NCBI GenBank assembly: GCA_001890965.1
Contig: MLAY01000008.1
Span: 552,341 to 616,340 of the forward strand
Reading direction: 5' to 3'
DNA length: 64,000 bases
Source: a marine bacterium AO1-C
GTDB taxonomy: Bacteria; Bacteroidota; Bacteroidia; Cytophagales; Microscillaceae
Below, piece after piece: positions 19,432 to 35,041 of this stretch (its first letter is position 1; each line of letters opens with the position of its first letter). A program made the translations under genes and the position numbers. The notes beneath the pieces were generated by a model. The model worked only from the letters and a program-made list of their open reading frames with translations, had not been told where the DNA came from and ran no database searches.

Positions 19432-19464
19432 GATACTTGTTGGTGTTGTTTTGGGCAAATGAAA

Positions 19465-19500
19465 ATCAAAAAAGCCTGTCTCGTAAGAAACAGGCTCCCT
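19465..19500 (-). terminator. Rho-independent terminator (gcctgtctc-gtaa-gaaacaggc plus T-run on the minus strand) downstream of thioredoxin paralog 1, also terminating the convergent PON-like gene
   Basis: Hairpin 19474-19495 preceded by aaaaatcaaaaa on the plus strand. Near-identical copies at 22122-22158 and 23441-23475. Confidence 0.6.
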
Positions 19501-19521
19501 TAAATATTGGTTGATTCAATG

Positions 19522-20697
19522 TTAGAGTTTTGCATTGATTTTATCAAGCAACTCTTTGGCATATTTAATATTCCCTTTTTCTTGCTTGGCCAAAACAATG
19601 GATTCTTCAACTACTTTTTTGGCTTCTGCATAACGCTCCAACTTAAACAGCAACTGAGCTTTAACATATACATTGCCATAGATTTTCCTCAGTTCTATAG
19701 AACGTTTTATCCAGTCTAAAGCTTTTTCTAAACGCTTAGTATCCAGCTTATCTTTGCTGAAAGCATAGCTATAAGCAGTCATTGCAAAATTCATAGGGTT
19801 TTCACAGTAATTGTCCAGATAACGGCAATCATAATGAAAACTTTTCTCCTTGTCACTTCCATAAAACAAGTACTCAGCTTTTGCAATGTATTTATCAGCT
19901 GATTTTCCCAATATTTTGCTCAGGTTCTTTTTAAAGGCGGTAAGTTGGTCTTTATCCTTAGATTTACTGATGCTTCGCATTTCAGGCTCTATTCCTTTTT
20001 CAATAAATTTATTTACCTCTCGTTTGTTCTTTGCCAATTTCACAAACTTGTCCTGATTGTTCAGCACATAGCCAAAAGCTTCTTGTGAATATTTGGTCAC
20101 AAATTCTTTGATAAATTCCCAGCCTTCAGCAGTAGCCCAATTATTTTTGCCCAATTGGTTTAAATACGTTTCGGTGGGTTTGGTAAAGTCTTGACGAGCA
20201 CCTTTTGCTGCTATAATGTATTTCTTAAGAAAAGCCTTATCTTTTTCACCTTTCTCAAAGCGGCGTTGCATGGTGTAAAACTGGTTTTCAGGGTTCAATG
20301 CATTATTGGCTTGTTTCAATAATTTTTTAGCTGGATAAGCACCTAAGGTTTTATGCACGATTTCGCCTTGAGGATTAAAGTACACCAATGTTGGAAAAGC
20401 ACGTATTTCGTATTTTTTTGCAAAATCTACACCTTCTCCTTTTTCCATGTCCATTTTAAAAGATACAAAGTGTTTGTTGAAAAAATCGCCTACTTTTTTT
20501 TGAGGAAATATTTTCTTGGACTGCCATTTACAAGGGCCACACCAGGTAGTGTAGGCATCCACAAAAATGTGTTTGTTTTCGGCTTTGGCCTTGGCTTTTA
20601 TTTCAGCCCAAGTGCCTTTTTCAAATTTGATTCCTTGAGCAATGGTAAAGTTTGCAAACAAGCCCAGCAGTAAAAGGATATTTAATATTTTTTTCAT
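19522..20697 (-). CDS. Thioredoxin-family protein (secreted, CGPC active site) with a C-terminal alpha-helical domain; paralog 1 of 4
   Basis: Signal peptide. AYTTWCGPCKWQSKK thioredoxin motif. ~395 aa. Tandem with three paralogs. Confidence 0.75.
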   Translation of the reverse strand: MKKILNILLLLGLFANFTIAQGIKFEKGTWAEIKAKAKAENKHIFVDAYTTWCGPCKWQSKKIFPQKKVGDFFNKHFVSFKMDMEKGEGVDFAKKYEIRAFPTLVYFNPQGEIVHKTLGAYPAKKLLKQANNALNPENQFYTMQRRFEKGEKDKAFLKKYIIAAKGARQDFTKPTETYLNQLGKNNWATAEGWEFIKEFVTKYSQEAFGYVLNNQDKFVKLAKNKREVNKFIEKGIEPEMRSISKSKDKDQLTAFKKNLSKILGKSADKYIAKAEYLFYGSDKEKSFHYDCRYLDNYCENPMNFAMTAYSYAFSKDKLDTKRLEKALDWIKRSIELRKIYGNVYVKAQLLFKLERYAEAKKVVEESIVLAKQEKGNIKYAKELLDKINAKL

Positions 20698-20871
20698 TTA
20701 TGTGGTAGTTTAAGTTTAAAACACAACAATTACTATAAATATAGTCATATGACTATTAAACTAGTAATAAGTAGAAAAGTTTCATGTCCAATATACTTAT
20801 TAACAACACATAAATAAGTTTAACCACAGGTTATTTGGATGATTTAAAAGATGTATTTACTCAACAAAGCA

Positions 20872-22068
20872 TTACAATTTGGCCTCAATTTCTTCTAATT
20901 GTTTTTGAGCTTTTTGCACAAACGATTTTACTTCCTTTTTGGCCAGGGTTACTACTTCTTGAGCCACAGGATAAGCTTGTTTATAGCGTTTCATTTTTAG
21001 CAACAAGCCCACCTTTGCATTGAGATTATCTACATTACGCTTTAGCTTGATAGCTCGATTTATCCAATGTAGGGCACTGTTTAAATGTTCCAAATCAGTA
21101 TATTTATTAGTGTACATCCAAGCAGCATATAGTAGGGCTATTTCGTCGTTGGTATGATCTAAAAATTTACGGGCATATTTTAAGGATTTTTTTTCATCGG
21201 GCAGGTAATATAAATACTCCTTTCGAGCAATGGCTTCTTTTGCTTCTTCAGGAGGAAAAACCATTTTTACTTTCTTCCGGTAATCAATCAATGCTTGTTC
21301 TCTTTCTGAATGAGGCACATTCATCGCATCTTCGTTCAGTGATTTGATTAGGTATTGGCTAACAATCTTTTTACCCAAAACTTGAGCAAAACTAGCTCGG
21401 TTGTCAAGAATGTAGTTAAACTCCTTTGAAGTAGTTCTCTTCAAATAAGCTTCTATTATTTTCCAGTTTTCTGGTTTCGCCCAGTTTGCTTTTTCCTGTT
21501 GAGCCAAGTACGCACTCAATGGTTTATCGTAGGGTTCATTTGCCAGGCTCAATGCTTTGATATAACGCTTTAGAAAATCGTTTTCTCTAGCTCCGGCTTT
21601 ATATCGCCTTTGTTGAGCCATCAATTGGGTTTTGGGGTCTAGGGCCTGACGAGCTGCATCTATAATTTTAGCTGCTCCGCCAGAGCCTTTGACAATATGC
21701 ACCAGATTTCCCTGGGGGTCAAAATAAAGCAAGGTAGGATATGATGTCACTTGGTACTTTTTGGCAAACGCAACGCCTTCTCCTTTTTCCATATCCAATT
21801 CGTAACTCACCAAGTGTTGATTATAAACATCTCCTACCTCTTTCAAAGGAAAGACCTTCTTCCTCAGGTATTTGCAAGGGCCACACCAGGTAGTATAAGC
21901 ATCTACAAATATGAATTTATTCTCTTTTTTGGCTTTCGTCTGAATTTCGCTCCAGGTACCTTTTTCAAATTTGATCCCTTGTCCAAGTACTACACTACTC
22001 ACCCAGGCAATAAGAGTGACCACACATAAAATCGTTCTCATATAATTTAAAAGTTTGATTGGTTTCAC
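20872..22068 (-). CDS. Thioredoxin-family protein; paralog 2 of 4 (most divergent)
   Basis: AYTTWCGPCKYLRKK motif. The start may be the internal M at 22041. No terminator copy downstream, unlike the other three. Confidence 0.7.
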   Translation of the reverse strand: MKPIKLLNYMRTILCVVTLIAWVSSVVLGQGIKFEKGTWSEIQTKAKKENKFIFVDAYTTWCGPCKYLRKKVFPLKEVGDVYNQHLVSYELDMEKGEGVAFAKKYQVTSYPTLLYFDPQGNLVHIVKGSGGAAKIIDAARQALDPKTQLMAQQRRYKAGARENDFLKRYIKALSLANEPYDKPLSAYLAQQEKANWAKPENWKIIEAYLKRTTSKEFNYILDNRASFAQVLGKKIVSQYLIKSLNEDAMNVPHSEREQALIDYRKKVKMVFPPEEAKEAIARKEYLYYLPDEKKSLKYARKFLDHTNDEIALLYAAWMYTNKYTDLEHLNSALHWINRAIKLKRNVDNLNAKVGLLLKMKRYKQAYPVAQEVVTLAKKEVKSFVQKAQKQLEEIEAKL

Positions 22069-22121
22069 ATAAAATACGTATTGTATTGACTAGACGCGAC
22101 TTATTTGTGTAAAGCAAACCA

Positions 22122-22158
22122 TCAAAAAAAGCCTATTTCTCGTAAGAAACAGGCCCTT
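22122..22158 (-). terminator. Terminator hairpin copy (gcctatttc-tcgtaa-gaaacaggc) downstream of thioredoxin paralog 3
   Basis: Same hairpin-plus-A-run unit as at 19465-19500, with one mismatch in the stem. Confidence 0.5.
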
Positions 22159-22178
22159 AAATATTGGTTGATTAAGTA

Positions 22179-23366
22179 TTATAACTTCGCATTGATTTTC
22201 TTTAGCAAGGCCTGTGCTCCTCCTGGACTTCCCCCTATTTTTTTGGACAAAGCAATAGATTCTTCCGCTACTTTTTTGGCTTCCTGATAACGCTTCAATT
22301 TATATAATAAGCGCGCTTGGGTACTGGTATTATACCAAGTCTTTTTTAGCTTCACCGATTTTTCGGCCCACACCAATGCTTTTTCCAGTTTTTGAGGATC
22401 ATTCGTAATTAAACTATACCTGGCCGCCATACCGCCTAAATCCTGAGAACCATTGCAATAATTATCATAATACTTGCAGACATACCGAAAAGCTTTTTCT
22501 TTATCTTTGTCAAGATAAAAGAACCAAAAATCTGCTTTAGTCAAGAGCTTTTCAACGTCTCTCTTTTGAACAAATACTTTTCTCAATCTTCGCTTCAATG
22601 AATCTAATTGGGCCTCACTTTTATCTTTAGAAAACGCTACTTTTTTCATGTCCTCTTCTAACACCTTTTCGATATAATTTTTCACGTTCTCTTTTTTCTT
22701 AGCCACTTGCTCAAACTTTGCTTGGTTTTTTAAGACATATTCAAAAGCTACTGCTGAAGGTTTTTCCACATATTGACTTATAAATTCCCAACCTTTGGTG
22801 GTGGCCCATTTGTCTTTACCCAGTTGGTTCAAGTATAGTGTAACGGGTTCAGTAATATCCTCGAAGGCAGTTTTCAAAGTCTTGATGTATTTCTCCAGGA
22901 ACTCATTGCTTTTTTCTCCTTTCTCAAAACGGCGTTGTAAAGTAAAAACCTGAGTTTCAGGGTTCAAGGCGTCTGCAGTCAGTTTCAGTAATATGTCAGC
23001 TGGCGCAGCCCCTCCAATTTTATGAACTATTTGGCCTTGGGGGCTAAAATATAGCAAGGTAGGATATGCACTTATCTTGTATTTTTTAGCAAAAGCAGGC
23101 CCTTCTCCCTTTTCTGTATTCACCTTATAAGACACAAAATGCTTGTTGAAAAAATCGCCTACTTTTTTTTGAGGAAAGACTTTTTTGGATTGCCACTGAC
23201 AGGGGCCACACCAAACAGTGTAGGCATCTACAAAAATGTACTTGTTTTCAGCTTTGGCTTTGGCTTTTATTTCCGTCCAGGTGCCTTTTTCAAACTTAAT
23301 CCCTTGAGCAATCGTGGTATTGGCAAGCCAACCTATCAGTATTAATGTATAGAATGTAACTTTCAT
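22179..23366 (-). CDS. Thioredoxin-family protein; paralog 3 of 4
   Basis: AYTVWCGPCQWQSKK motif. Same architecture as the others. Confidence 0.75.
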   Translation of the reverse strand: MKVTFYTLILIGWLANTTIAQGIKFEKGTWTEIKAKAKAENKYIFVDAYTVWCGPCQWQSKKVFPQKKVGDFFNKHFVSYKVNTEKGEGPAFAKKYKISAYPTLLYFSPQGQIVHKIGGAAPADILLKLTADALNPETQVFTLQRRFEKGEKSNEFLEKYIKTLKTAFEDITEPVTLYLNQLGKDKWATTKGWEFISQYVEKPSAVAFEYVLKNQAKFEQVAKKKENVKNYIEKVLEEDMKKVAFSKDKSEAQLDSLKRRLRKVFVQKRDVEKLLTKADFWFFYLDKDKEKAFRYVCKYYDNYCNGSQDLGGMAARYSLITNDPQKLEKALVWAEKSVKLKKTWYNTSTQARLLYKLKRYQEAKKVAEESIALSKKIGGSPGGAQALLKKINAKL

Positions 23367-23440
23367 CTTTTGAACAATTTAATTGATAACAACCTACACA
23401 GTTCTATACTTGATGGCTTTAAAAAATGGAGCCGATTTAT

Positions 23441-23475
23441 AAAAAAAGCCTGTCTCTCGTAAGAAACAGGCTCTT
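23441..23475 (-). terminator. Terminator hairpin copy (gcctgtctctc-gtaa-gaaacaggc) downstream of thioredoxin paralog 4
   Basis: Hairpin 23448-23471 with an aaaaaaa run on the plus strand. Confidence 0.55.
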
Positions 23476-23495
23476 AAATCTTGATTGATTAAGTA

Positions 23496-24668
23496 TTATA
23501 ATTTCGCATTGATTTTTTCTAACAATGCTTTGGTTTCTTTGGCATTTTGCTTGGCTTCTTTGGCCAAAGCTATAGATTCTTCAGCAACCTTTTTGGCTTC
23601 TTTGTAACGCTTAAGCTTAAATAACAAGTGGGCTTGAGTATCGGTATTGAACGATTTTTTCATCAATTTTACTGATTGTTGTGCCCAGCCTAAAGCCTTT
23701 TCTAAACGCTCAGTATCATTGTACTTTTTGTAATAGCCCCACGCAATGCTGTTAAACTCATAGGCATTGTCACAGTACTTATCAAAGTACTTGCAGGCAT
23801 ATTGCATGGCTTTTTCTTTGTCTCCAGCATAAAACATATATTCGGCCTTGGCAATGTGCTTGTCGGCATCTTTCCCAAATACATCCTTTAATTTCTTTTT
23901 GAAAGTAGTCAGCTGTTTTTTGTCTTTGGAACGAGCTACTCCGCGCATATCCATCATCAACACACGAGTGATATACTTCTCTACTTTTTCTTTGCTTTCA
24001 GCTGCTTTTTCAAACTTAGCCTGGTTTTTCATTACATACTCAAAAGCCTCTGCAGAAGACTTACGTACATACTTGCTGATAAACTTCCAACCTTCGGCAG
24101 TAGCCCATTTGTCTTTGCCCAATTGCGCCAGATACATGTCAGCAGGCTTGCTGAAATCCTCATAGGCACCTTCTAAAGCAGCAATATATTTTTGCAGAAA
24201 CTCATTACTTTTTTCTCCTTTTTCAAAACGACGCTTCAAAGTAAATACCTGGGTCTCGGGGTTTAGCGCATTGGCTGCAGCTTTTAGTAGTACCTTAGCA
24301 GGGTAGGCACCTACGGTTTTATGCACCATTTCGCCTTGGGGGTTAAAATATACCAAAGTAGGATAAGCTCTTACTTTGTATTTTTTTGCAAAGTCAACTC
24401 CTTCTCCTTTTTCCATATCCATTTTAAAAGAGATATAGTTTTTATTGAAAAAGTCACCTACTTCTTTTTGAGGGAATACTTTTTTGGATTGCCACTTACA
24501 AGGGCCACACCAGGTAGTATAGGCATCTACAAAAATGTGCTTGTTTTCGGCTTTGGCTTTAGCCTTAATTTCAGACCAGGAGCCTTTCTGAAAGGCAATT
24601 CCTTGAGCACCTGCGGTAAAGGCGGCTAGTAGTAAAAAAGCAAAGAGGGGTAAAAATTTATGCTTCAT
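23496..24668 (-). CDS. Thioredoxin-family protein; paralog 4 of 4
   Basis: AYTTWCGPCKWQSKK motif. ATG at 24668 (MKHKFLPLFAFLLLAAF, a signal peptide) is preferred over the longer ORF start at 24731. Confidence 0.75.
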   Translation of the reverse strand: MKHKFLPLFAFLLLAAFTAGAQGIAFQKGSWSEIKAKAKAENKHIFVDAYTTWCGPCKWQSKKVFPQKEVGDFFNKNYISFKMDMEKGEGVDFAKKYKVRAYPTLVYFNPQGEMVHKTVGAYPAKVLLKAAANALNPETQVFTLKRRFEKGEKSNEFLQKYIAALEGAYEDFSKPADMYLAQLGKDKWATAEGWKFISKYVRKSSAEAFEYVMKNQAKFEKAAESKEKVEKYITRVLMMDMRGVARSKDKKQLTTFKKKLKDVFGKDADKHIAKAEYMFYAGDKEKAMQYACKYFDKYCDNAYEFNSIAWGYYKKYNDTERLEKALGWAQQSVKLMKKSFNTDTQAHLLFKLKRYKEAKKVAEESIALAKEAKQNAKETKALLEKINAKL

Positions 24669-24866
24669 TGTGTATTGTAGTTTAAGGGTGATTGATTTAT
24701 GTTGAGTTAAATTAATGATTTTTTGCCTCAATGATGTTCTTCCAGCCCAAATAGTTGCTTTCTTCGCAAGAAATTATGCTTTCTTTAGTATTTAGCCTGC
24801 TTTTTTTTCTTAACCTTTTACCTTTGCATCCGGTTATTTAAGCAATCAAAATAAGTATACTGGTTT

Positions 24867-27468: not shown

Positions 27469-27819
27469 TTAGGAAGGTAATGGATAAGTCAGTTTCTTGT
27501 CCATTACTTTTTGGAATATTACCTTTTCCACGGCTGCCCAATCTTCATAACCTAAAAACTGTACAATCTTTTCTTGATTGATCGTATTGAGTTTTCCCAA
27601 ACATTTGGTAGTGGCTTCACTATTAAACAATCGTTTGAGGGTAGAAATGCTTATGTCGGTCATAGAAGATAAATTCCTAAAATCCTTATAGGTACAATCT
27701 TCAGGCTTTTGGGGTATTCTTTTGCAATAGGTAAGACCGCTGGCAGGTCTTCCCAGCAGTTCATTAGCCCTTTCCAAGATCATTAGGGCAATTGTTTTTT
27801 TTAAAATTCGGGTTAGCAT
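27469..27819 (-). CDS. Small HTH-like protein; paralog A of a pair that brackets the lanthipeptide biosynthetic genes
   Basis: Shares with 33125..33442 the blocks MILE(R/T)A, DFR(N/Y)LS..T.ISI(S/T)TLKRLFN(S/C)EA and QKI..FLGY..W..VE.VI. The S..T..RL block resembles an HTH recognition helix. Confidence 0.5.
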   Translation of the reverse strand: MLTRILKKTIALMILERANELLGRPASGLTYCKRIPQKPEDCTYKDFRNLSSMTDISISTLKRLFNSEATTKCLGKLNTINQEKIVQFLGYEDWAAVEKVIFQKVMDKKLTYPLPS

Positions 27820-28096
27820 ATCGGTATTGTTAGGTATAGACAACTGCAAACGCAGGCACTCTATAGGTTTACGAAATAGCTGCTCGAATTGAAGGAAATG
27901 GATCACTTATTTCTTAGAAGCTGTTTGAGTTTTAGTCATAGAAATTGTTATAGGTTATTTTGAGTCTAATTAAAGCTCATTTTTGATACATAGCCTGTAG
28001 CTACGTGCGAAAAAACAGCTAAAACGTAGGCCCAAAAGAGCCATCACAAAAATATTGAATAGAATTCGAACAGCTTCTGAGACATTCTCTCAACTC

Positions 28097-31000
28097 TTAA
28101 TCATTTTCAGCCATCACCTCTGGCTGATTCGTTTGTTTTTTCTTCGCTCTGGCAATAGTGGAACGATAATGCTGAAAAAGAAAGTCGTACAATACTACTT
28201 CGTGGATGCGTTGTTTAGAACGTAGTAATCGATTAACCATCATATGGATATAACTCGGCAACATGATATTTAGTTGACCTTGCGTTCCATTTGCCTCACA
28301 AATAGTGTGTATTTCTTGAATAATACCTTTCCAGGCTTGAGAACGTTGCTCAAAACAATCAAATGCGGCAGCCAGTGGGTGGGTATTATCGTATGAAGTC
28401 ACCATTATTTCTTGCACCTTAGTACGGGCTTCGCGATATTTTTGACTCAACTGTTTCTTGGCCGCTTTGTCGGTAAAGTTAAAATCTCGGGCAAAATTGT
28501 CTTTCATGTTTTCTATCAACTGCAAGCGCTGGTGCAAATCCAACCCAAAATCGGCCATCAATGCATCTGCACCTCTCAAAGCCAACAACCAACGAAATTC
28601 TTCTATTTCTTCGCCTTCGAATAAGCTTAAAATATTGGCTACTGCCTGACTATCATGGCAAAATAGTTTCTCTGAAAGCTCCATTGTGGCCGCTCCATAG
28701 CGTTCCACTTCGCGCACATAAGTATCGGTATGGAAGTTACTCACCAAACCAGTGCTCACGTAAGGTTCCAGGGCTTGATGCAGCAAGGCAATTACTTGGG
28801 CATAAAACAAGCCTTTACCCTTAAAACGCACTCTCAAATGGCTTTTTGGATCTATATAACGCAAGAAAAACCATTCTTCAATGATTTGTTCCGACAAAAG
28901 TTGATCGGCTACTGGTTTGATCACTTCGGTAATGATTTGATCAGCGATCTTAGCCCCACAATATATTTTTAGATAAAACCATTCTGACCCTAAAGCAAAT
29001 TCACGGGTAATTTGCTGGTCAGTAACCGTAAACAGGTTGGTATTAGTTGGCGACTGGACATCAGCCTGATTTGCATTGGTGGTATAATGAAAAGGCACCA
29101 CAATTTCATTGGTAAAGCTTCCTTCTGGGCCAGTGGCCAACAAGTTTTGTTCATGAAACAAAGATTCCTCTAAAACCGCCACATAAGAAGGTTTGTACAA
29201 GCTCAACAATATTTTGATGGGCCATAGCTGCGATAAATCCAATGGAAGTTTATTGTCTCCAAAAACAGCCGTTATATGTTGGGGTATTTGCAATCGGTCA
29301 CGCAGAGCCTGCATTTTTTCTACTTTGTGCGCATCGCTTGCATCTCTTACCTCCTTTAAATCTTCGGCTTTCACTTTCCATCGGGCCTTGCTCAAAATGG
29401 CTTTGCCCAAGGTTACTCTTGGCAACCAATCAGCATTTTCGAGATGCAGCCAACTCCAGGTTACACCATTGGCAAATTGGGTTTGCAAGTCACACAAGAA
29501 GTAGTATACTGGAACCGATTTCGTTTCATAATTATGAGCAGAACTTAAACGAGGGATTACTTCTTTGCCCAGTTTTTTAGAAAATAAAATCAAACGATCA
29601 TCGTGGATTTTCAGCCATAAATCAGCCAAAGCAATGGTATATGCTTCGTCTACTGCGGTAGTAGCCATTACTGGAATCTCATAATCGCGTAATACCGCTC
29701 GTTGCAATACATTGCCCAAACGAGCCATGGGCAAATGCACAATCTCTGCCAAAATTGCTTCAGGAAAGGCCGCTTGTTCTTTCTCAAAAGTATGTTTTAG
29801 CAAATCGGTGAGTTCTTCTCCTTCATAACAAAAACGCCCCAACATTTTACCTACTGATGCTCCGCCAGCTGAGGTAACCGCTACCTGAAACTTCCCCTGA
29901 TCTACCGCCTCGGGCGATGCAGCTAACACATTGCCTAAAAAGCTAAAAGTAGTTCCCAACTGAAGGTCTTCAGGGCGAGTAAATAGTTTTTCCAGTTCGT
30001 CTTTTGACAATTCTATATTGGCCTTGCCCTGGTGCAAAGCTTCATAATATTTTTCTTGTAAATAATGCGTCCAGGCACTCAGTTCTAAAGAAGCGTTAGA
30101 AGCTCGGCCATTTTTTGCCAATACCAAGTCATCTACCAAAGGAGTAAAGTCTGCTGAGTCTTGATGCTTAAGTGGATATCCCAGGCCAACTTCACTATCT
30201 AAGGCCTGTAGCAATGGTACGGCTTGTTGCTCATACTTTTGCCGAAAATCTACCTTAAAACTCTCTAAGTCTAGATTGGGAGCATTACCTTTGATCAAAA
30301 ATAGCCATTCTACTGCTTCAACTATTTCTTTGGCTACTTGTGGGTGCAAAGTATTTTGGATGGTAGCTTTTTGCATATCTACTTGAAACAGCTCTCCCGC
30401 CTTTATTTCTTGGCCTTTTGCATCCAATTGTTGCGCGAGTGCTTCGATTGCTTGCTGGATTTGGCGATAACGATCTACCTCTACTCCTAGCGGTTGGTGA
30501 TCAATCGCCTGCATTTGTTGAGCGATTTGCTCTAAAGCGTTTACCAATGTCCCCTGTGAAGGAATTGTTTGAAGAATTTCGATTAAACGCCCTAAAAACT
30601 CTTCTCCGGTAACCGTGGGTTCTAACTCACTTAACAATAACTGACTCTCAATGAGTGCCTCAATAAACTCACTGGCTTCTTCCAGGGTAGTTTCGTCGTC
30701 TACAAACAGGTTGGCCAAATCTATAATTTTGGCCCCTTGTTGGGCTTGCTGCAAGACTAACTCTATAAATTCTGAATTGTCTACATCTACCAAATGTAAA
30801 GTTCGTCCTTTTTCCTGCAAACGATATTCGAGGTAGCGTAAATAGTCTCCTACTTTATATAAGGTAGGATTGGGGTAAAATTTTAAATGAGGTTTGATTG
30901 CGGGCCTTTCGGCCAATTGAATTGCAAAATTGCCAAGAAACCCCATGTCGAGTCGGGTATGTCGTTGATTATGTTCGTTCTCGGCAAACTTTACCTGAGT

Positions 31001-31333
31001 TTGTTGCTCAAACTTACCTACCGATATTCCTGCCATCAACCCAAAAGGGGTAGGCCGAAACGACATACGATACAAGTACTTTAGAAATGATATTTTGAGC
31101 TTCTCTTCTTCTTTGGTGCTTTCTACGCCGTTTTTGAACCATTGCAGTAAAGCCTCTAGCAAACTAGGTGATGACAAATAAATTGCCTCTCGAATGATGG
31201 GGTTTTCTAATAGTTTTTCGATCGATATCGCTTCAACATCAGCAAAAGAATTAAAGGGTAAGAGTGGGGTTCTTAAAACGTAATAATCCAGTGGGCGAAT
31301 GTGGTATTTTTTAGGTTGGTTAGTTTGTTTCAT
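28097..31333 (-). CDS. Class I lanthipeptide dehydratase LanB (full-length, unsplit: glutamylation plus elimination domains)
   Basis: ~1080 aa. N-terminus (MKQTNQPKKYHIRPLDYYVLRTPLLPF) is the hallmark start of lantibiotic dehydratases. Its size is consistent with an N-terminal dehydratase domain plus a C-terminal SpaB_C-type elimination domain. It follows LanC after a 25-bp gap. Confidence 0.85.
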   Translation of the reverse strand: MKQTNQPKKYHIRPLDYYVLRTPLLPFNSFADVEAISIEKLLENPIIREAIYLSSPSLLEALLQWFKNGVESTKEEEKLKISFLKYLYRMSFRPTPFGLMAGISVGKFEQQTQVKFAENEHNQRHTRLDMGFLGNFAIQLAERPAIKPHLKFYPNPTLYKVGDYLRYLEYRLQEKGRTLHLVDVDNSEFIELVLQQAQQGAKIIDLANLFVDDETTLEEASEFIEALIESQLLLSELEPTVTGEEFLGRLIEILQTIPSQGTLVNALEQIAQQMQAIDHQPLGVEVDRYRQIQQAIEALAQQLDAKGQEIKAGELFQVDMQKATIQNTLHPQVAKEIVEAVEWLFLIKGNAPNLDLESFKVDFRQKYEQQAVPLLQALDSEVGLGYPLKHQDSADFTPLVDDLVLAKNGRASNASLELSAWTHYLQEKYYEALHQGKANIELSKDELEKLFTRPEDLQLGTTFSFLGNVLAASPEAVDQGKFQVAVTSAGGASVGKMLGRFCYEGEELTDLLKHTFEKEQAAFPEAILAEIVHLPMARLGNVLQRAVLRDYEIPVMATTAVDEAYTIALADLWLKIHDDRLILFSKKLGKEVIPRLSSAHNYETKSVPVYYFLCDLQTQFANGVTWSWLHLENADWLPRVTLGKAILSKARWKVKAEDLKEVRDASDAHKVEKMQALRDRLQIPQHITAVFGDNKLPLDLSQLWPIKILLSLYKPSYVAVLEESLFHEQNLLATGPEGSFTNEIVVPFHYTTNANQADVQSPTNTNLFTVTDQQITREFALGSEWFYLKIYCGAKIADQIITEVIKPVADQLLSEQIIEEWFFLRYIDPKSHLRVRFKGKGLFYAQVIALLHQALEPYVSTGLVSNFHTDTYVREVERYGAATMELSEKLFCHDSQAVANILSLFEGEEIEEFRWLLALRGADALMADFGLDLHQRLQLIENMKDNFARDFNFTDKAAKKQLSQKYREARTKVQEIMVTSYDNTHPLAAAFDCFEQRSQAWKGIIQEIHTICEANGTQGQLNIMLPSYIHMMVNRLLRSKQRIHEVVLYDFLFQHYRSTIARAKKKQTNQPEVMAEND

Positions 31334-31358
31334 TTGGTAAAGAATTAAGTCATCATTT

Positions 31359-32615
31359 CTAAGCAATATCAAGCAAAAAGGCTCGCTCCCAATCGGTATT
31401 ATTTTCGTTATCCAAGAAACCCAGCATTACCATTGCAATCCCGGCATAGCCTTCTAAGAAACTGTAATCTTCTACCCAGTAAGGCTCTTTGGTATCAGGA
31501 TTCACTTTCATTCGTTTGTAATGTTCTTGTGCTTCGTTTTCTTGGTATTGTGTTACCAATAGGTTTAGCCAATGATCAGCAGCTTGTTGAAAGGCTTCTT
31601 CTTGTGTTGCCTGGTACAACTTACGATACATGTGGGCTATGCCTCCACCGCCATGGCAAAAGCCTGCATCCATCAGATTATCTTGAGGACTAAGGTGTAC
31701 CCCCGCTTCCTGAGGAGTTGCTTTTTGGGTAGTTTGTAGCGCAATCGCAATGGCCTTTTGCTTCCATTGATCCTGATCTAGGGCTTTTGAGGCATGCATC
31801 AAGGCTACCACAATGCATAAATCTCCGTAACACCAAGCCAACCGACCTTGTCGCTCATTGGCGGCTCCTTCTATAATCGTCAGCGGAAAGCACTCTGGTT
31901 GGTCTTCAAGCTCTTGCTGCACTAGCCAGGTCACGCTTTGCTCCAGCAATGTTTTACTTACTTCGGGTAAAATTTCGTTTTGAAAAGCCTTAGCCAAAAA
32001 GCTAATAATTCCAGGAATGCCATGGGCTAGCCCCAGATTGTAGCGAACATGGTGTTGGTATTCTTCATCTATGGTAAAATGGTCTTGCCAATAAGTAAAT
32101 CCATTTTCTTTGATGGCAGTTTGGTCTAAAGAAGTAACAATTTGTTCTAGTTGTGTCCTTGCTGAATCTGCGTGAGGTAAACGCTCGAGGTAATAAATAC
32201 CTTTGCTCACTAAACCATACAGCGTATCATAATTTTTATGTTGGCTATTTTGTACCAACGATGCCTCTATCATATCATCTAAATCGCTCAACATTTCGGC
32301 ATCTTCAGGATCAAGAATTTCTATGTTTACCAAATGTTGTAGCAACCAGGCTGCCCCCAGGTATTTGCCTGCCATAGCTACCTCGGCATGGGCTATCTCG
32401 CTATTTACTTGCATAAACTCCTCCAACGCCTCCACAGCTCCCTGGGCAAACTTATCGGCTTGCGATGCATCAAATAAGCTTGCATAGGCATACAGTAATG
32501 ATTGGGCCGCGTGATAATTGCTAAACAGGTAAGGAGTAGTAGGCAATGGATGCTTCTCGAACTTATTGAGTAGTTTTTGGACGATGTTTTTTTGAAGCTC
32601 AGGGGAAGACCACAT
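31359..32615 (-). CDS. Lanthionine synthetase C-like cyclase LanC
   Basis: Zinc-ligand and catalytic motifs GLAHGIPGI, LAWCYGDLCI and GFCHGGGGIAHMY (GxAHG / WCxG / CHG). Confidence 0.85.
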   Translation of the reverse strand: MWSSPELQKNIVQKLLNKFEKHPLPTTPYLFSNYHAAQSLLYAYASLFDASQADKFAQGAVEALEEFMQVNSEIAHAEVAMAGKYLGAAWLLQHLVNIEILDPEDAEMLSDLDDMIEASLVQNSQHKNYDTLYGLVSKGIYYLERLPHADSARTQLEQIVTSLDQTAIKENGFTYWQDHFTIDEEYQHHVRYNLGLAHGIPGIISFLAKAFQNEILPEVSKTLLEQSVTWLVQQELEDQPECFPLTIIEGAANERQGRLAWCYGDLCIVVALMHASKALDQDQWKQKAIAIALQTTQKATPQEAGVHLSPQDNLMDAGFCHGGGGIAHMYRKLYQATQEEAFQQAADHWLNLLVTQYQENEAQEHYKRMKVNPDTKEPYWVEDYSFLEGYAGIAMVMLGFLDNENNTDWERAFLLDIA

Positions 32616-32699
32616 ATTTCAGAGAATGAATTGGCAATGAATAAAAAATGATCACCCCCTTTGATAGCAAAGGAGGTGATTGAAAGCAACGCTTAATGT

Positions 32700-32924
32700 T
32701 TATACTGGGTAGTTAGATGGAGTTCTGCATTGTCTAGAGTCGTTGCAGGTAAACTGAGAAGCAGCACAAGGACCACCCATGCTACGGTCACAAGTCATGT
32801 CTTCTACACGAGTAAGATACTGACAAGCTTCTCCACCTTGAATAGTTTTCAGGTTCAAATCGTTTTGACCTTTGGTAAAATTCTTTAATGTACGTTTGTT
32901 TACTTTGAATTTGTTTTTGCTCAT
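32700..32924 (-). CDS. Lanthipeptide precursor peptide LanA (double-glycine leader, Cys/Ser/Thr-rich core)
   Basis: 74 aa. Leader MSKNKFKVNKRTLKNFTKGQNDLNLKTIQGG with an NDLNL (FNLD-like) box and a GG site. Predicted core EACQYLTRVEDMTCDRSMGGPCAASQFTCNDSRQCRTPSNYPV has 5 Cys and 8 Ser/Thr. Immediately upstream of LanC and LanB on the same strand. Confidence 0.7.
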   Translation of the reverse strand: MSKNKFKVNKRTLKNFTKGQNDLNLKTIQGGEACQYLTRVEDMTCDRSMGGPCAASQFTCNDSRQCRTPSNYPV

Positions 32925-33124
32925 GATTAAAATTAGATTTAGTTAACATACCTACTCTGTTTCCGATTTTCGGCGTACTCGGTCTTAGAAACTGTGTAGA
33001 CTTTAATGAAAAATGGCTTATAACATTTCTTGTCACTAAAACCACACAATTTCACAATCCAAAGATCAAAAAGAAAATAAATATATTTCCCTCACAAAAT
33101 GACCAAATAAAATTTGGATAAAGA

Positions 33125-33442
33125 TCAATCTTTCTTATCAATTAGATTATCAAGAATGACCCCTTCGACCTCGTCCCAGGTGGCATATCCTAAAAAATGA
33201 GCAATTTTTTGTTGGTTTTTGGCATTACAAAATCTTACTCCTTGAGCCTCACAGTTGAAGAGACGTTTGAGCGTAGTAATGCTAATCCCTGTAAGGTAAG
33301 ACAGGTATCGAAAATCGGCGTGTCGGCAAGTCTGCGTGTCGGTAGCTAATTTGGTTTGCTGTTCACAGAATGCTTGATTTTTTGCGGTAGCAGTTTCCAA
33401 AATCATTTGAGCCACTTGCTGTTTAAGGAGATGGTATAGCAT
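33125..33442 (-). CDS. Small HTH-like protein; paralog B, immediately upstream of the precursor gene
   Basis: See 27469..27819. 105 aa. Confidence 0.5.
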   Translation of the reverse strand: MLYHLLKQQVAQMILETATAKNQAFCEQQTKLATDTQTCRHADFRYLSYLTGISITTLKRLFNCEAQGVRFCNAKNQQKIAHFLGYATWDEVEGVILDNLIDKKD

Positions 33443-33730
33443 GATGTTTTGTGATTTATGATGAGAATATGCCTGACATATTCTTTTTTCATATGTTGTT
33501 TTACTTAACTATTTGTTACACTTATTATGATTTTAAGTCAGGGTCTTCGTTAGAAAGTTTGATAAAATTTTAATAAAAATATGGTATTTTATCTGGATAA
33601 GCTTGAGGATTGGCTTTTTTTATAGCAAATGGGGGTGGTGAACTAGCAACTTTTTAAAACGATGGATATTTTGATGTATCGGCTTGTTTAAGAAAACAGG
33701 AAAGGATGTTGGGGACTTGCCCCAACAAAA

Positions 33731-35041
33731 CTACTTCACCAAAACCCTTTTTTCCATCAACAATCGTTTCTCTACATCCCATACTTTCACCTGATAAGAG
33801 CCTTTAGGTAGCACCAAATAAGAAGGCTTATCTAGTTGCTTGAGGTGGATTTGGTCTATGGGCACTGCATTTTCAGCATCACTTGGTTTAAAAGCTTGCA
33901 CCAAACACTCTTGCTTGATATTCCACTTTTTAGGATCAACCTTGTAGTACTTTTTGGCGGTCCCCCAACTGAGCCAGGTTGGGCGTCCGTTTTTGAGTTG
34001 GGTACGGGGCAAAAAGACTTGCACATCTACGTAGTTTACAAACAAATTGCCCGTATCGGCTACCCAAGGTTTGCTTTGATACTCAAGCACAATGGGGCTA
34101 TTTTTTAACCAACCTTGTTTGATCACCTGACGATAATACACATGTTCATATTTTTTATGAAAACGCTCGGTCATCTCAGTTTGATCTATAGTAAAAGGGT
34201 TGATTCCGGTCAATTTGATGAACTCCTCGCCCATTTTTACCCAACTTTTCTTCTGGTGGTTTTCTTCTATATTCTGGATACCTCCATATACCAGCATCTT
34301 GGCTTCAGGATTTTTCTTAAGCACCTCCTGTAAGTGCATCGCTTGCTGTTTAGATCTTGAGGTACCTCGTTTGTTGGCCTCGTAAGGCAATACTTTAAAG
34401 CCTAGCTTGATGGCTTGGCGAATCAAGTTACTCATCATAGGTTCTAAAGTAAAATACCCCGAATTGGCCAATGGATAACCTCGTTGGTTCAGCAAAGTAT
34501 CTTTATGGCTCAATGTCTCGACCATCAAGAAACGAAAGCCTTGTTGGTATAAACCAGCTAATAGTGTCGCAGCAAAGGCTCGGTGCTGGCCCACATGGTG
34601 CGCTTCATTGATCATTATTACTTGCTCACGCTTGGCTCTTTGGAGAATGTAGTTTTTAGCATCAGGCACCTTTACTTGCTTACTATCCAGCGATTTGACT
34701 ACTATTTTCTTTCTACCCTCAATCATCAAGGCTTTGTCAAAATAGTAAAGTGCGCTATCATAATTCGTCACAAACGAATTGTAAAACCCTTGGTATTGGG
34801 CATAAAAACTCTTGGTATCAGGATCGGCATTGGCCACAAGGCTTTCGTTGGCTTTGAGCGCAACTACTGGCTTGAGATAATTAGGGTTAGAGCGATCTTG
34901 TATAGCCTCTCTCACTATACTATCTATTTTGCTCATGAGTTCGAACTGAGCAAATGCTTGTGTTTGAAAAAATAGTATTCCACAAAGGATACTACCTATC
35001 ACAAAAGCTTTTCCGGCGGATAATTTCGCAAATTTGATCAT
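33731..35041 (-). CDS. Secreted protein of uncertain function encoded inside the lanthipeptide operon (possible Tiki/TraB/erythromycin-esterase-like hydrolase)
   Basis: Signal peptide (GILFFQTQAFAQ). INEAHHVGQHR and VYGG segments weakly resemble the paired GxxH motifs of the Tiki/TraB/PrgY/ChaN superfamily. Assignment is tentative. Confidence 0.4.
   Translation of the reverse strand: MIKFAKLSAGKAFVIGSILCGILFFQTQAFAQFELMSKIDSIVREAIQDRSNPNYLKPVVALKANESLVANADPDTKSFYAQYQGFYNSFVTNYDSALYYFDKALMIEGRKKIVVKSLDSKQVKVPDAKNYILQRAKREQVIMINEAHHVGQHRAFAATLLAGLYQQGFRFLMVETLSHKDTLLNQRGYPLANSGYFTLEPMMSNLIRQAIKLGFKVLPYEANKRGTSRSKQQAMHLQEVLKKNPEAKMLVYGGIQNIEENHQKKSWVKMGEEFIKLTGINPFTIDQTEMTERFHKKYEHVYYRQVIKQGWLKNSPIVLEYQSKPWVADTGNLFVNYVDVQVFLPRTQLKNGRPTWLSWGTAKKYYKVDPKKWNIKQECLVQAFKPSDAENAVPIDQIHLKQLDKPSYLVLPKGSYQVKVWDVEKRLLMEKRVLVK

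Follow-up and report, generated by a model that had tools for sequence, protein, structure and literature searches.

The stretch of the marine bacterium AO1-C analysed here (GenBank assembly GCA_001890965.1, contig MLAY01000008.1, positions 552,341 to 616,340), the whole 64,000 nucleotides of which are called the window, contains a class I lanthipeptide locus in which two small paralogous genes, A and B, enclose the precursor gene lanA, lanC and the dehydratase gene lanB. The order A-lanA-lanC-lanB-B is a conserved five-gene cassette. As judged from their predicted fold, A and B most likely go back to an ancient duplication within a family of small XRE/Cro-C1-like proteins (about 100-140 amino acids, aa) that has not been described before. 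It is proposed, with moderate confidence, that they are dimeric XRE-type DNA-binding proteins which would act on a conserved non-coding element between A and lanA (block 1) to control lanA-lanC-lanB.

A and B are 43% identical over 112 columns (BLASTP, E 5e-26) and are the only two copies in the window, the next best tblastn match to either protein having E > 0.5. The three blocks that an original prediction, made from the letters of the window, had recognised in both proteins are all present: MILE[T/R]A, DFRxLSxxTxISIxTLKRLFNxEA and QxKIxxFLGYxxWxxVExVI. Its placement of A directly upstream of the precursor gene and of B directly downstream of lanB agrees with the coordinates and the gene order. 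The minus strand carries all five genes, with 200 bp between the stop of A (33125) and the start of lanA (32924), and 277 bp between the stop of lanB (28097) and the start of B (27819). The open reading frame (ORF) of B is open from a GTG at 27906 (145 aa), and the NCBI annotation uses a downstream Met (104 aa); of these starts, the ATG at 27819 has the best support because the sequence of the N-terminal helix, MLxxxLKxxxAxMILE, is common to the A and B orthologues. Helix 1 of the domain starts each protein. Neither A nor B has a signal peptide, a membrane segment or a leader, including the stretch of ~15-30 aa ending in GG before a mature domain that is typical of double-glycine cargo. A reading of A and B as immunity proteins or membrane proteins was discarded on the lack of a signal peptide or membrane segment.

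The related loci were all retrieved by searching with A or B. Each search returned seven or eight close homologues, which split into two separate groups with orthologue identities of 67-81% (A-type) and 52-73% (B-type). Every related locus long enough to show both flanks, representing five lineages, keeps the pair with lanA-lanC-lanB in the order A-lanA-lanC-lanB-B; the only related locus among the GTDB species genomes belongs to a Microscillaceae metagenome-assembled genome, and two further short metagenome contigs added few data. LanA is 78-85% conserved in four of these loci (L001, L006, L009 and L011). The neighbours on the B side (suhB-like, lnt and thioredoxin genes) are syntenic with the window in four of the five lineages. 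Those on the A side vary: a C39-peptidase ATP-binding cassette (ABC) exporter (PCAT) in L004, a 436-aa protein of no known family followed by a PCAT in the window, a C39-VKOR-thioredoxin fusion in L001, and unrelated genes in L009. In L006/L007 the neighbours on both sides are unrelated to those of the window: the pair is kept with lanA-lanC-lanB in more than one genomic context.

Selection has acted on both copies. For A the ratio of nonsynonymous to synonymous substitution rates (dN/dS) is 0.13-0.14 and for B 0.11-0.22, with the synonymous divergence (dS) near saturation at about 1-2. A and B are thus under purifying selection and form separate orthologous groups; the duplication is therefore old and maintained, predating the divergence of the five lineages, and the pair is a retained part of the cassette. 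The original prediction had also offered the pair as the footprint of a duplication that assembled the cluster, and this assembly-scar reading is rejected on the same grounds. It is scarcely credible that cluster assembly left behind a decaying duplicate pair in which one or both copies have no function. B does evolve faster, as the orthologue identities show, and its recognition helix varies from K to N or T, but the ORFs are intact in five lineages, dN/dS stays low even at near-saturated synonymous divergence, and both proteins, in their separate conserved groups, are predicted to fold confidently. A pseudogene or duplication-scar reading was likewise rejected on the dN/dS values.

The original prediction had called A and B helix-turn-helix (HTH)-like, and AlphaFold2 models built with a 15-sequence alignment bear this out with good confidence, predicting the XRE/Cro-C1 type for both. 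The models are all-helical (A: predicted local distance difference test score, pLDDT, 84 and predicted template modelling score, pTM, 0.78; B: pLDDT 80.7 and pTM 0.76), with five helices: a long N-terminal helix, then a poorly ordered insertion, then the HTH region. In A, helices are predicted at residues 2-24, 41-51, 55-62 (the recognition helix, ISITTLKRLF), 74-83 and 89-104. The arrangement is the compact five-helix domain of the XRE/Cro-C1 fold, in which helices 2 and 3 form the HTH. The stretch GISITTLKRLFN has the XRE pattern of turn and recognition helix, and QKIAHFLGY aligns with helix 4. The residues invariant across both groups (L47, S48, T51, S54, T57, R60, L61, F62, K79, I80, F83, L84, G85 and W89) are located in the HTH and helix 4, and the isoelectric point (pI) in the family is mostly basic, 8.4-9.9. 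The recognition helices are nearly identical in the window (ISISTLKRLF in B); in B orthologues the Lys position also takes N or T, a change that might loosen or displace the DNA contacts of B.

Two non-coding blocks stand out between A and lanA. Column invariance was measured across six loci, the window and five orthologous ones; 15-20% of third codon positions are invariant, against 43 of 59 columns in block 1 (73%) and 29 of 35 in block 2 (83%), both values like those of second codon positions. Block 1 contains a perfect palindrome, CCAAAT-N3-ATTTGG (33103-33117), which occurs once in the window and is perfect in five of the six loci. It also contains a promoter candidate, TTTG-N20-TCTTTTTG (33067-33098), which is Bacteroidetes-like by the yardstick of the Bacteroidetes -33/-7 promoter consensus. 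The strict Bacteroidetes pattern, TTTG-N17-23-TAnnTTTG, is absent from the cassette intergenic regions, and a sigma-70 scan did no better than shuffles. Within the promoter spacer the orthologues have a second inverted repeat, AAAGAAAT..ATTTCTTT; it is imperfect in the window, and its arms differ on both sides in L004. Block 1 is a candidate lanA promoter/operator or, as an alternative, the terminator of A.

Block 2 has a different identity. It matches the cis-regulatory RNA motif Rfam RF02914 (DUF805b) at 41.4 bits (gathering score 35.6; E 2.4e-8 for the whole window), the only Rfam match in the 64 kb, and the five orthologous loci match at 36.4-40.8 bits, all above threshold; in each of the six the match precedes the precursor gene by about 24 nt. 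The conserved stretches GCCGAAAA and AGAGUAGG of DUF805b are present in the window and in the matches of the loci, and the stem is preserved with base pairs (CCGA/UCGG) other than those of the consensus (AGGc/gCCU); among the six loci no covariation is seen in the match. Weinberg et al. 2017 reportedly named DUF805b for the DUF805 genes downstream. Here RF02914 precedes a lanthipeptide precursor gene, an unexpected downstream gene for this motif. Block 2 is unlikely to be an operator for A and B because DUF805b exists in Rfam independently of these loci; it would rather be a separate, generic cis element. An insertion of ~70 bp (32988-33057), found in the window only, separates the two blocks, and its position fits a location of block 2 in a 5' untranslated region, downstream of a block 1 promoter.

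These observations can be assembled into a model of cassette control. A and B would each bind DNA as dimers through their recognition helices, and the target would be the palindromic block 33060-33118, which probably holds the lanA promoter. For sequence-specific dimer binding to a palindromic operator, block 1 offers candidate sites, namely the palindrome at 33103-33117 and the second inverted repeat. Because nearly identical recognition helices would read the same or overlapping sites, A and B would set the expression of lanA-lanC-lanB jointly, as competitors (activator versus repressor) or joined in a heteromer. We infer each step, from fold to DNA binding, from binding to target site and from target site to pair logic, from sequences and structural models.

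A number of results weigh against this model. Pfam and NCBIfam scans of A, B and 43 family members placed none of them in a family above threshold, and no curated XRE profile (Pfam HTH_3, HTH_26, HTH_31 and similar) matches above its gathering score. The best profile match, to HTH_26, covers residues 47-71 of A only and reaches 13 bits against a cut-off of 22; one or two sub-threshold HTH_3 or Xre-like-HTH matches occur among the 43 family members. A PDB sequence search with two family profiles found an XRE-family regulator chain (7AB3/7AB4) at E 0.055-0.07, over the HTH motif only, which aligns as DLYTLELQTGISTSTLKRLF. An hhalign comparison with five approximate XRE sequences gave E 0.0036 and a probability of 9%, with helices 2-3 and helix 4 in register but no significance. 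All three weak signals (HTH_26, 7AB3/7AB4 and hhalign) fall in the register expected for an HTH. Membership of A and B in the XRE superfamily is therefore supported by predicted fold, while by sequence they belong to no curated family. The relaxed promoter pattern fits block 1, but it is common, with 36 matches in the window where 20 are expected. The palindromes of block 1 could equally well be the terminator hairpin of gene A. Across the six loci no conserved palindrome lies upstream of A or B, giving no sign of autoregulation, and no operator is common to the A-upstream, A-lanA and B-upstream regions. The sample of loci was found only through A and B and says nothing of the frequency of lanBC clusters that lack the pair. 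The remaining adverse points come from the wider family: five of 40 distant representatives (P0023, P0032, P0042, P0045 and P0046) carry an N-terminal double-glycine (GG) leader at the start of the domain, and P0032 and P0045 each sit divergently beside HlyD/AprE-like genes.

That family comprises 42 matches at E < 1e-3 among 1.84 billion representatives (full HMMER search). All but one of its members are 91-157 aa long; the exception, of 567 aa, matches only over a short repeated stretch. Members with a named source come from Microscillaceae (Cytophagales, Bacteroidota). Divergence in the wide family alignment is too great for a pattern search. Seven sampled contexts of distant members contain neither lanB nor lanC, so that only the A/B clade is linked to lanthipeptide genes. 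The five leaders, which are odd for a family of cytoplasmic transcription factors, end in ...ISKEEMEQIMGG, ...DMAHLLGGSQ, ...LSHIKGGSQ, ...HMIHGGSQ and MQQIMGG. The GGSQ junction is conserved in P0023, P0045 and P0046, and the GG-leader model TIGR04149 matches P0046 (E 0.004) and P0032 (E 0.058) weakly. In locus L018 the P0032 gene lies directly upstream of a GG-leader precursor-like gene, as A does of lanA. This neighbour encodes a Cys-rich, bacteriocin-like protein of 104 aa, and its leader and the P0032 leader are homologous, sharing 10 of 22 residues. Certain XRE-like proteins of the family may thus be substrates of peptidase-ABC exporters.

The leaders lend themselves to two further readings. 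A combination of XRE domain and GG leader could mark a regulator that is cleaved or expelled by a C39 exporter, or a secreted XRE fold with an extracellular role. Expelled regulators have an analogue in the anti-sigma factor FlgM, which is expelled by the flagellar export apparatus. On such export coupling, which we regard as quite improbable, A and B would be a derived, leaderless version in which one paralog antagonises the other; if true, this would be an unknown use of the XRE fold in peptide-export loci. Alternatively, A and B may have kept an XRE fold that makes protein contacts in place of DNA contacts, whether in maturation or export (for example as chaperone, adaptor or gatekeeper of the GG-leader precursor or the C39 exporter) or in intracellular immunity. 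The leaders with their GGSQ junction and TIGR04149 matches, the homology between the P0032 leader and that of its Cys-rich neighbour, the HlyD/AprE-like proteins beside P0032 and P0045, and the recurrence of GG-leader cargo and export genes near family members would all suit such a role. The leaders are the chief ground for keeping this rival, which we nevertheless consider unlikely: leader, signal peptide and membrane segment are all lacking in A and B, the best conserved residues belong to the HTH and helix 4, a pattern shared with DNA-binding XRE proteins, the pI is mostly basic, a palindrome-bearing block near gene A is under strong constraint, and the seven sampled contexts mostly have no export genes nearby. 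It is very improbable, in turn, that A and B mark the ends of a mobile or exchangeable cassette as accessory DNA-binding factors of the recombination-directionality or target-selection type. Such a role would account for the variable A-side neighbour, for the direct orientation of A and B at the two ends, and for L006/L007, where DNA homology with the window reaches from 20 bp before A into B and the flanks are unrelated. However, none of the loci has an integrase, transposase or recombinase in or beside the cassette, terminal repeats were not detected, the DNA sequences of A and B show no similarity that could drive recombination (even the proteins are only 43% identical), and on the B side four of five lineages keep syntenic neighbours. 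Binding of A and B to block 1 remains the preferred reading.

Coordinates of the cassette, its neighbours and related features (positions refer to the window unless a locus is named)
Feature	Coordinates	Strand	Remarks
C39-peptidase ABC exporter, lanT-like, 731 aa	35344..37539	-	Pfam Peptidase_C39 1e-35, ABC_membrane, ABC_tran
436-aa secreted protein	33731..35041	-	separates A from the exporter
Gene A, 105 aa, NCBI BKI52_25210	33125..33442	-	ORF; adjoins lanA on the upstream side
Block 1, conserved non-coding	33060..33118	-	7 nt past the stop codon of A; function inferred
Block 2, Rfam RF02914 (DUF805b) match	32949..32983	-	24 nt upstream of the lanA ATG
lanA precursor, 74 aa	32700..32924	-	ORF
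Hairpin and T-run between lanA and lanC	32651..32680	-	13-bp stem; terminator/attenuator-like
lanC, 418 aa	31359..32615	-	Pfam LANC_like E 5e-38
lanB, 1091 aa, full-length dehydratase	28097..31372	-	Pfam Lant_dehydr_N 7e-160, Lant_dehydr_C 6e-71
Gene B, 116 aa from ATG 27819, NCBI BKI52_25190	27469..27819	-	adjoins lanB on the downstream side
Loci with both flanking genes			L001/L002, L004/L005, L006/L007, L009, L011
RF02914 matches in orthologous loci	L001 4305-4339; L004 10389-10424; L006 4601-4635; L009 8681-8715; L011 10394-10428
Leader-bearing proteins P0032, P0045, P0046	L018 1643-2041 and 2229-2543; L017 4783-5181; L012 10001-10381

Further features of the cassette and its surroundings deserve mention. 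The leader of LanA ends in ...LNLKTIQGG and its core is rich in Cys, Ser and Thr; GG-type leaders have been described for class I LanAs of Bacteroidetes (PMC7268733). The hairpin between lanA and lanC resembles a terminator or attenuator, which would yield more precursor transcript than enzyme transcripts. On the A side, the 436-aa protein has a signal-like N-terminus and no Pfam or NCBIfam family. It is absent in L004, where the exporter (a 93% identical protein) abuts gene A directly, and its gene looks like an insertion specific to the AO1-C genome. In the coral-metagenome loci L001 (1988-3652) and L002 (1962-3626), the gene upstream of A encodes, instead of a C39 ABC exporter, a 554-aa C39 peptidase-VKOR-thioredoxin-like fusion, possibly a leader protease with an attached disulfide-forming module; the precursor core has five Cys. 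Another perfect palindrome, GAATATG-N5-CATATTC, lies in the window at 33465-33483, 23-41 nt before the start codon of A. The stretch is absent in the orthologous loci; the palindrome is not a conserved operator and could be a strain-specific site.

On the other side, B is followed by a convergent inositol-monophosphatase-like gene. A 15-nt inverted repeat (87% complementary, 27474-27510) overlaps the poorly conserved 3' end of B and is separated by 24 nt from the stop of the convergent gene; both genes may use it as a bidirectional terminator. Further along (~19460-24731, minus strand) a tandem array of no fewer than three, and perhaps four, paralogous genes encodes thioredoxin-domain proteins of ~395-411 aa with signal-like N-termini, and their synteny beside the cassette is kept in four of the five lineages.

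The wider interest of the cassette lies in its host phylum. By 2020 the pinensins were the only lanthipeptides isolated from Bacteroidota, a phylum that nevertheless holds a large share of the class I lanthipeptide clusters (PMC7268733). Natural-product discovery and heterologous expression are both blocked by the gap in knowledge of how such clusters are switched on. The cassette ends offer a testable regulatory pair, and the ~60-bp candidate operator/promoter a defined DNA target. In addition, A and B define a small-protein family that has no database model, a DUF805b element before a precursor of a ribosomally synthesised and post-translationally modified peptide is a new clue to an orphan RNA motif, and the leader-bearing relatives hint at export-linked control.

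Among small XRE proteins of known function, the controller (C) proteins of restriction-modification (R-M) systems (C.BclI, C.Esp1396I and C.AhdI) and ClgR are only 8-16% identical to A and B. C proteins autoregulate from boxes before their own gene, whereas no such box is conserved before A or B; the associated genes also differ, with no restriction or methylase linkage and no R-M genes near the cassette. SinR/SlrR/SinI of Bacillus subtilis and CI-MOR of phage TP901-1 have no sequence relation to A and B, and their biology differs.

Nearer in setting is CylR2 of the Enterococcus faecalis cytolysin, a class II system. Rumpel et al. 2004 reportedly described CylR2 as a 66-aa Cro/C1-type HTH dimer. 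The original prediction had seen in A and B no obvious likeness to the common lanthipeptide regulators. By sequence this stands, as Pfam and NCBIfam find no response-regulator receiver, no winged-helix or GerE (LuxR) output domain and no SARP domain in either protein. It does not hold for small XRE repressors, which are already known in lanthipeptide clusters: CylR2 binds the promoter of the structural-gene operon for the cytolysin lanthipeptide (PMC3709268). The likeness is that of a small single-domain protein in a lanthipeptide cluster, with a fold class predicted to be alike. There is no detectable sequence relation, and the arrangement differs: CylR2 is paired with the membrane protein CylR1, A with its paralog B; transcription of CylR2 is divergent, from overlapping promoters, while A and B run in the direction of the biosynthetic genes and stand at both ends of them. 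A and B are also longer, have a long N-terminal helix, carry an insertion ahead of the HTH and belong to a class I cluster of a Gram-negative Bacteroidota host. We found no description of a retained paralogous pair bracketing the biosynthetic genes, of the extended domain architecture, of occurrence in a class I cassette of Bacteroidota, or of relatives with export leaders.

For the pair logic, the closest parallel is PlnC/PlnD of Lactobacillus plantarum C11. These proteins are 59% identical and bind the same repeats, one as an activator and the other as a repressor (PMC2714321). They are response regulators that work with a histidine kinase and a peptide pheromone, unlike A and B, which have no receiver domain and no kinase gene between 27.4 and 37.6 kb; and where PlnC and PlnD bind shared repeats, shared sites are proposed for A and B. 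What the two systems would have in common is a pair of homologous regulators in one bacteriocin locus, the logic put forward here for A and B.

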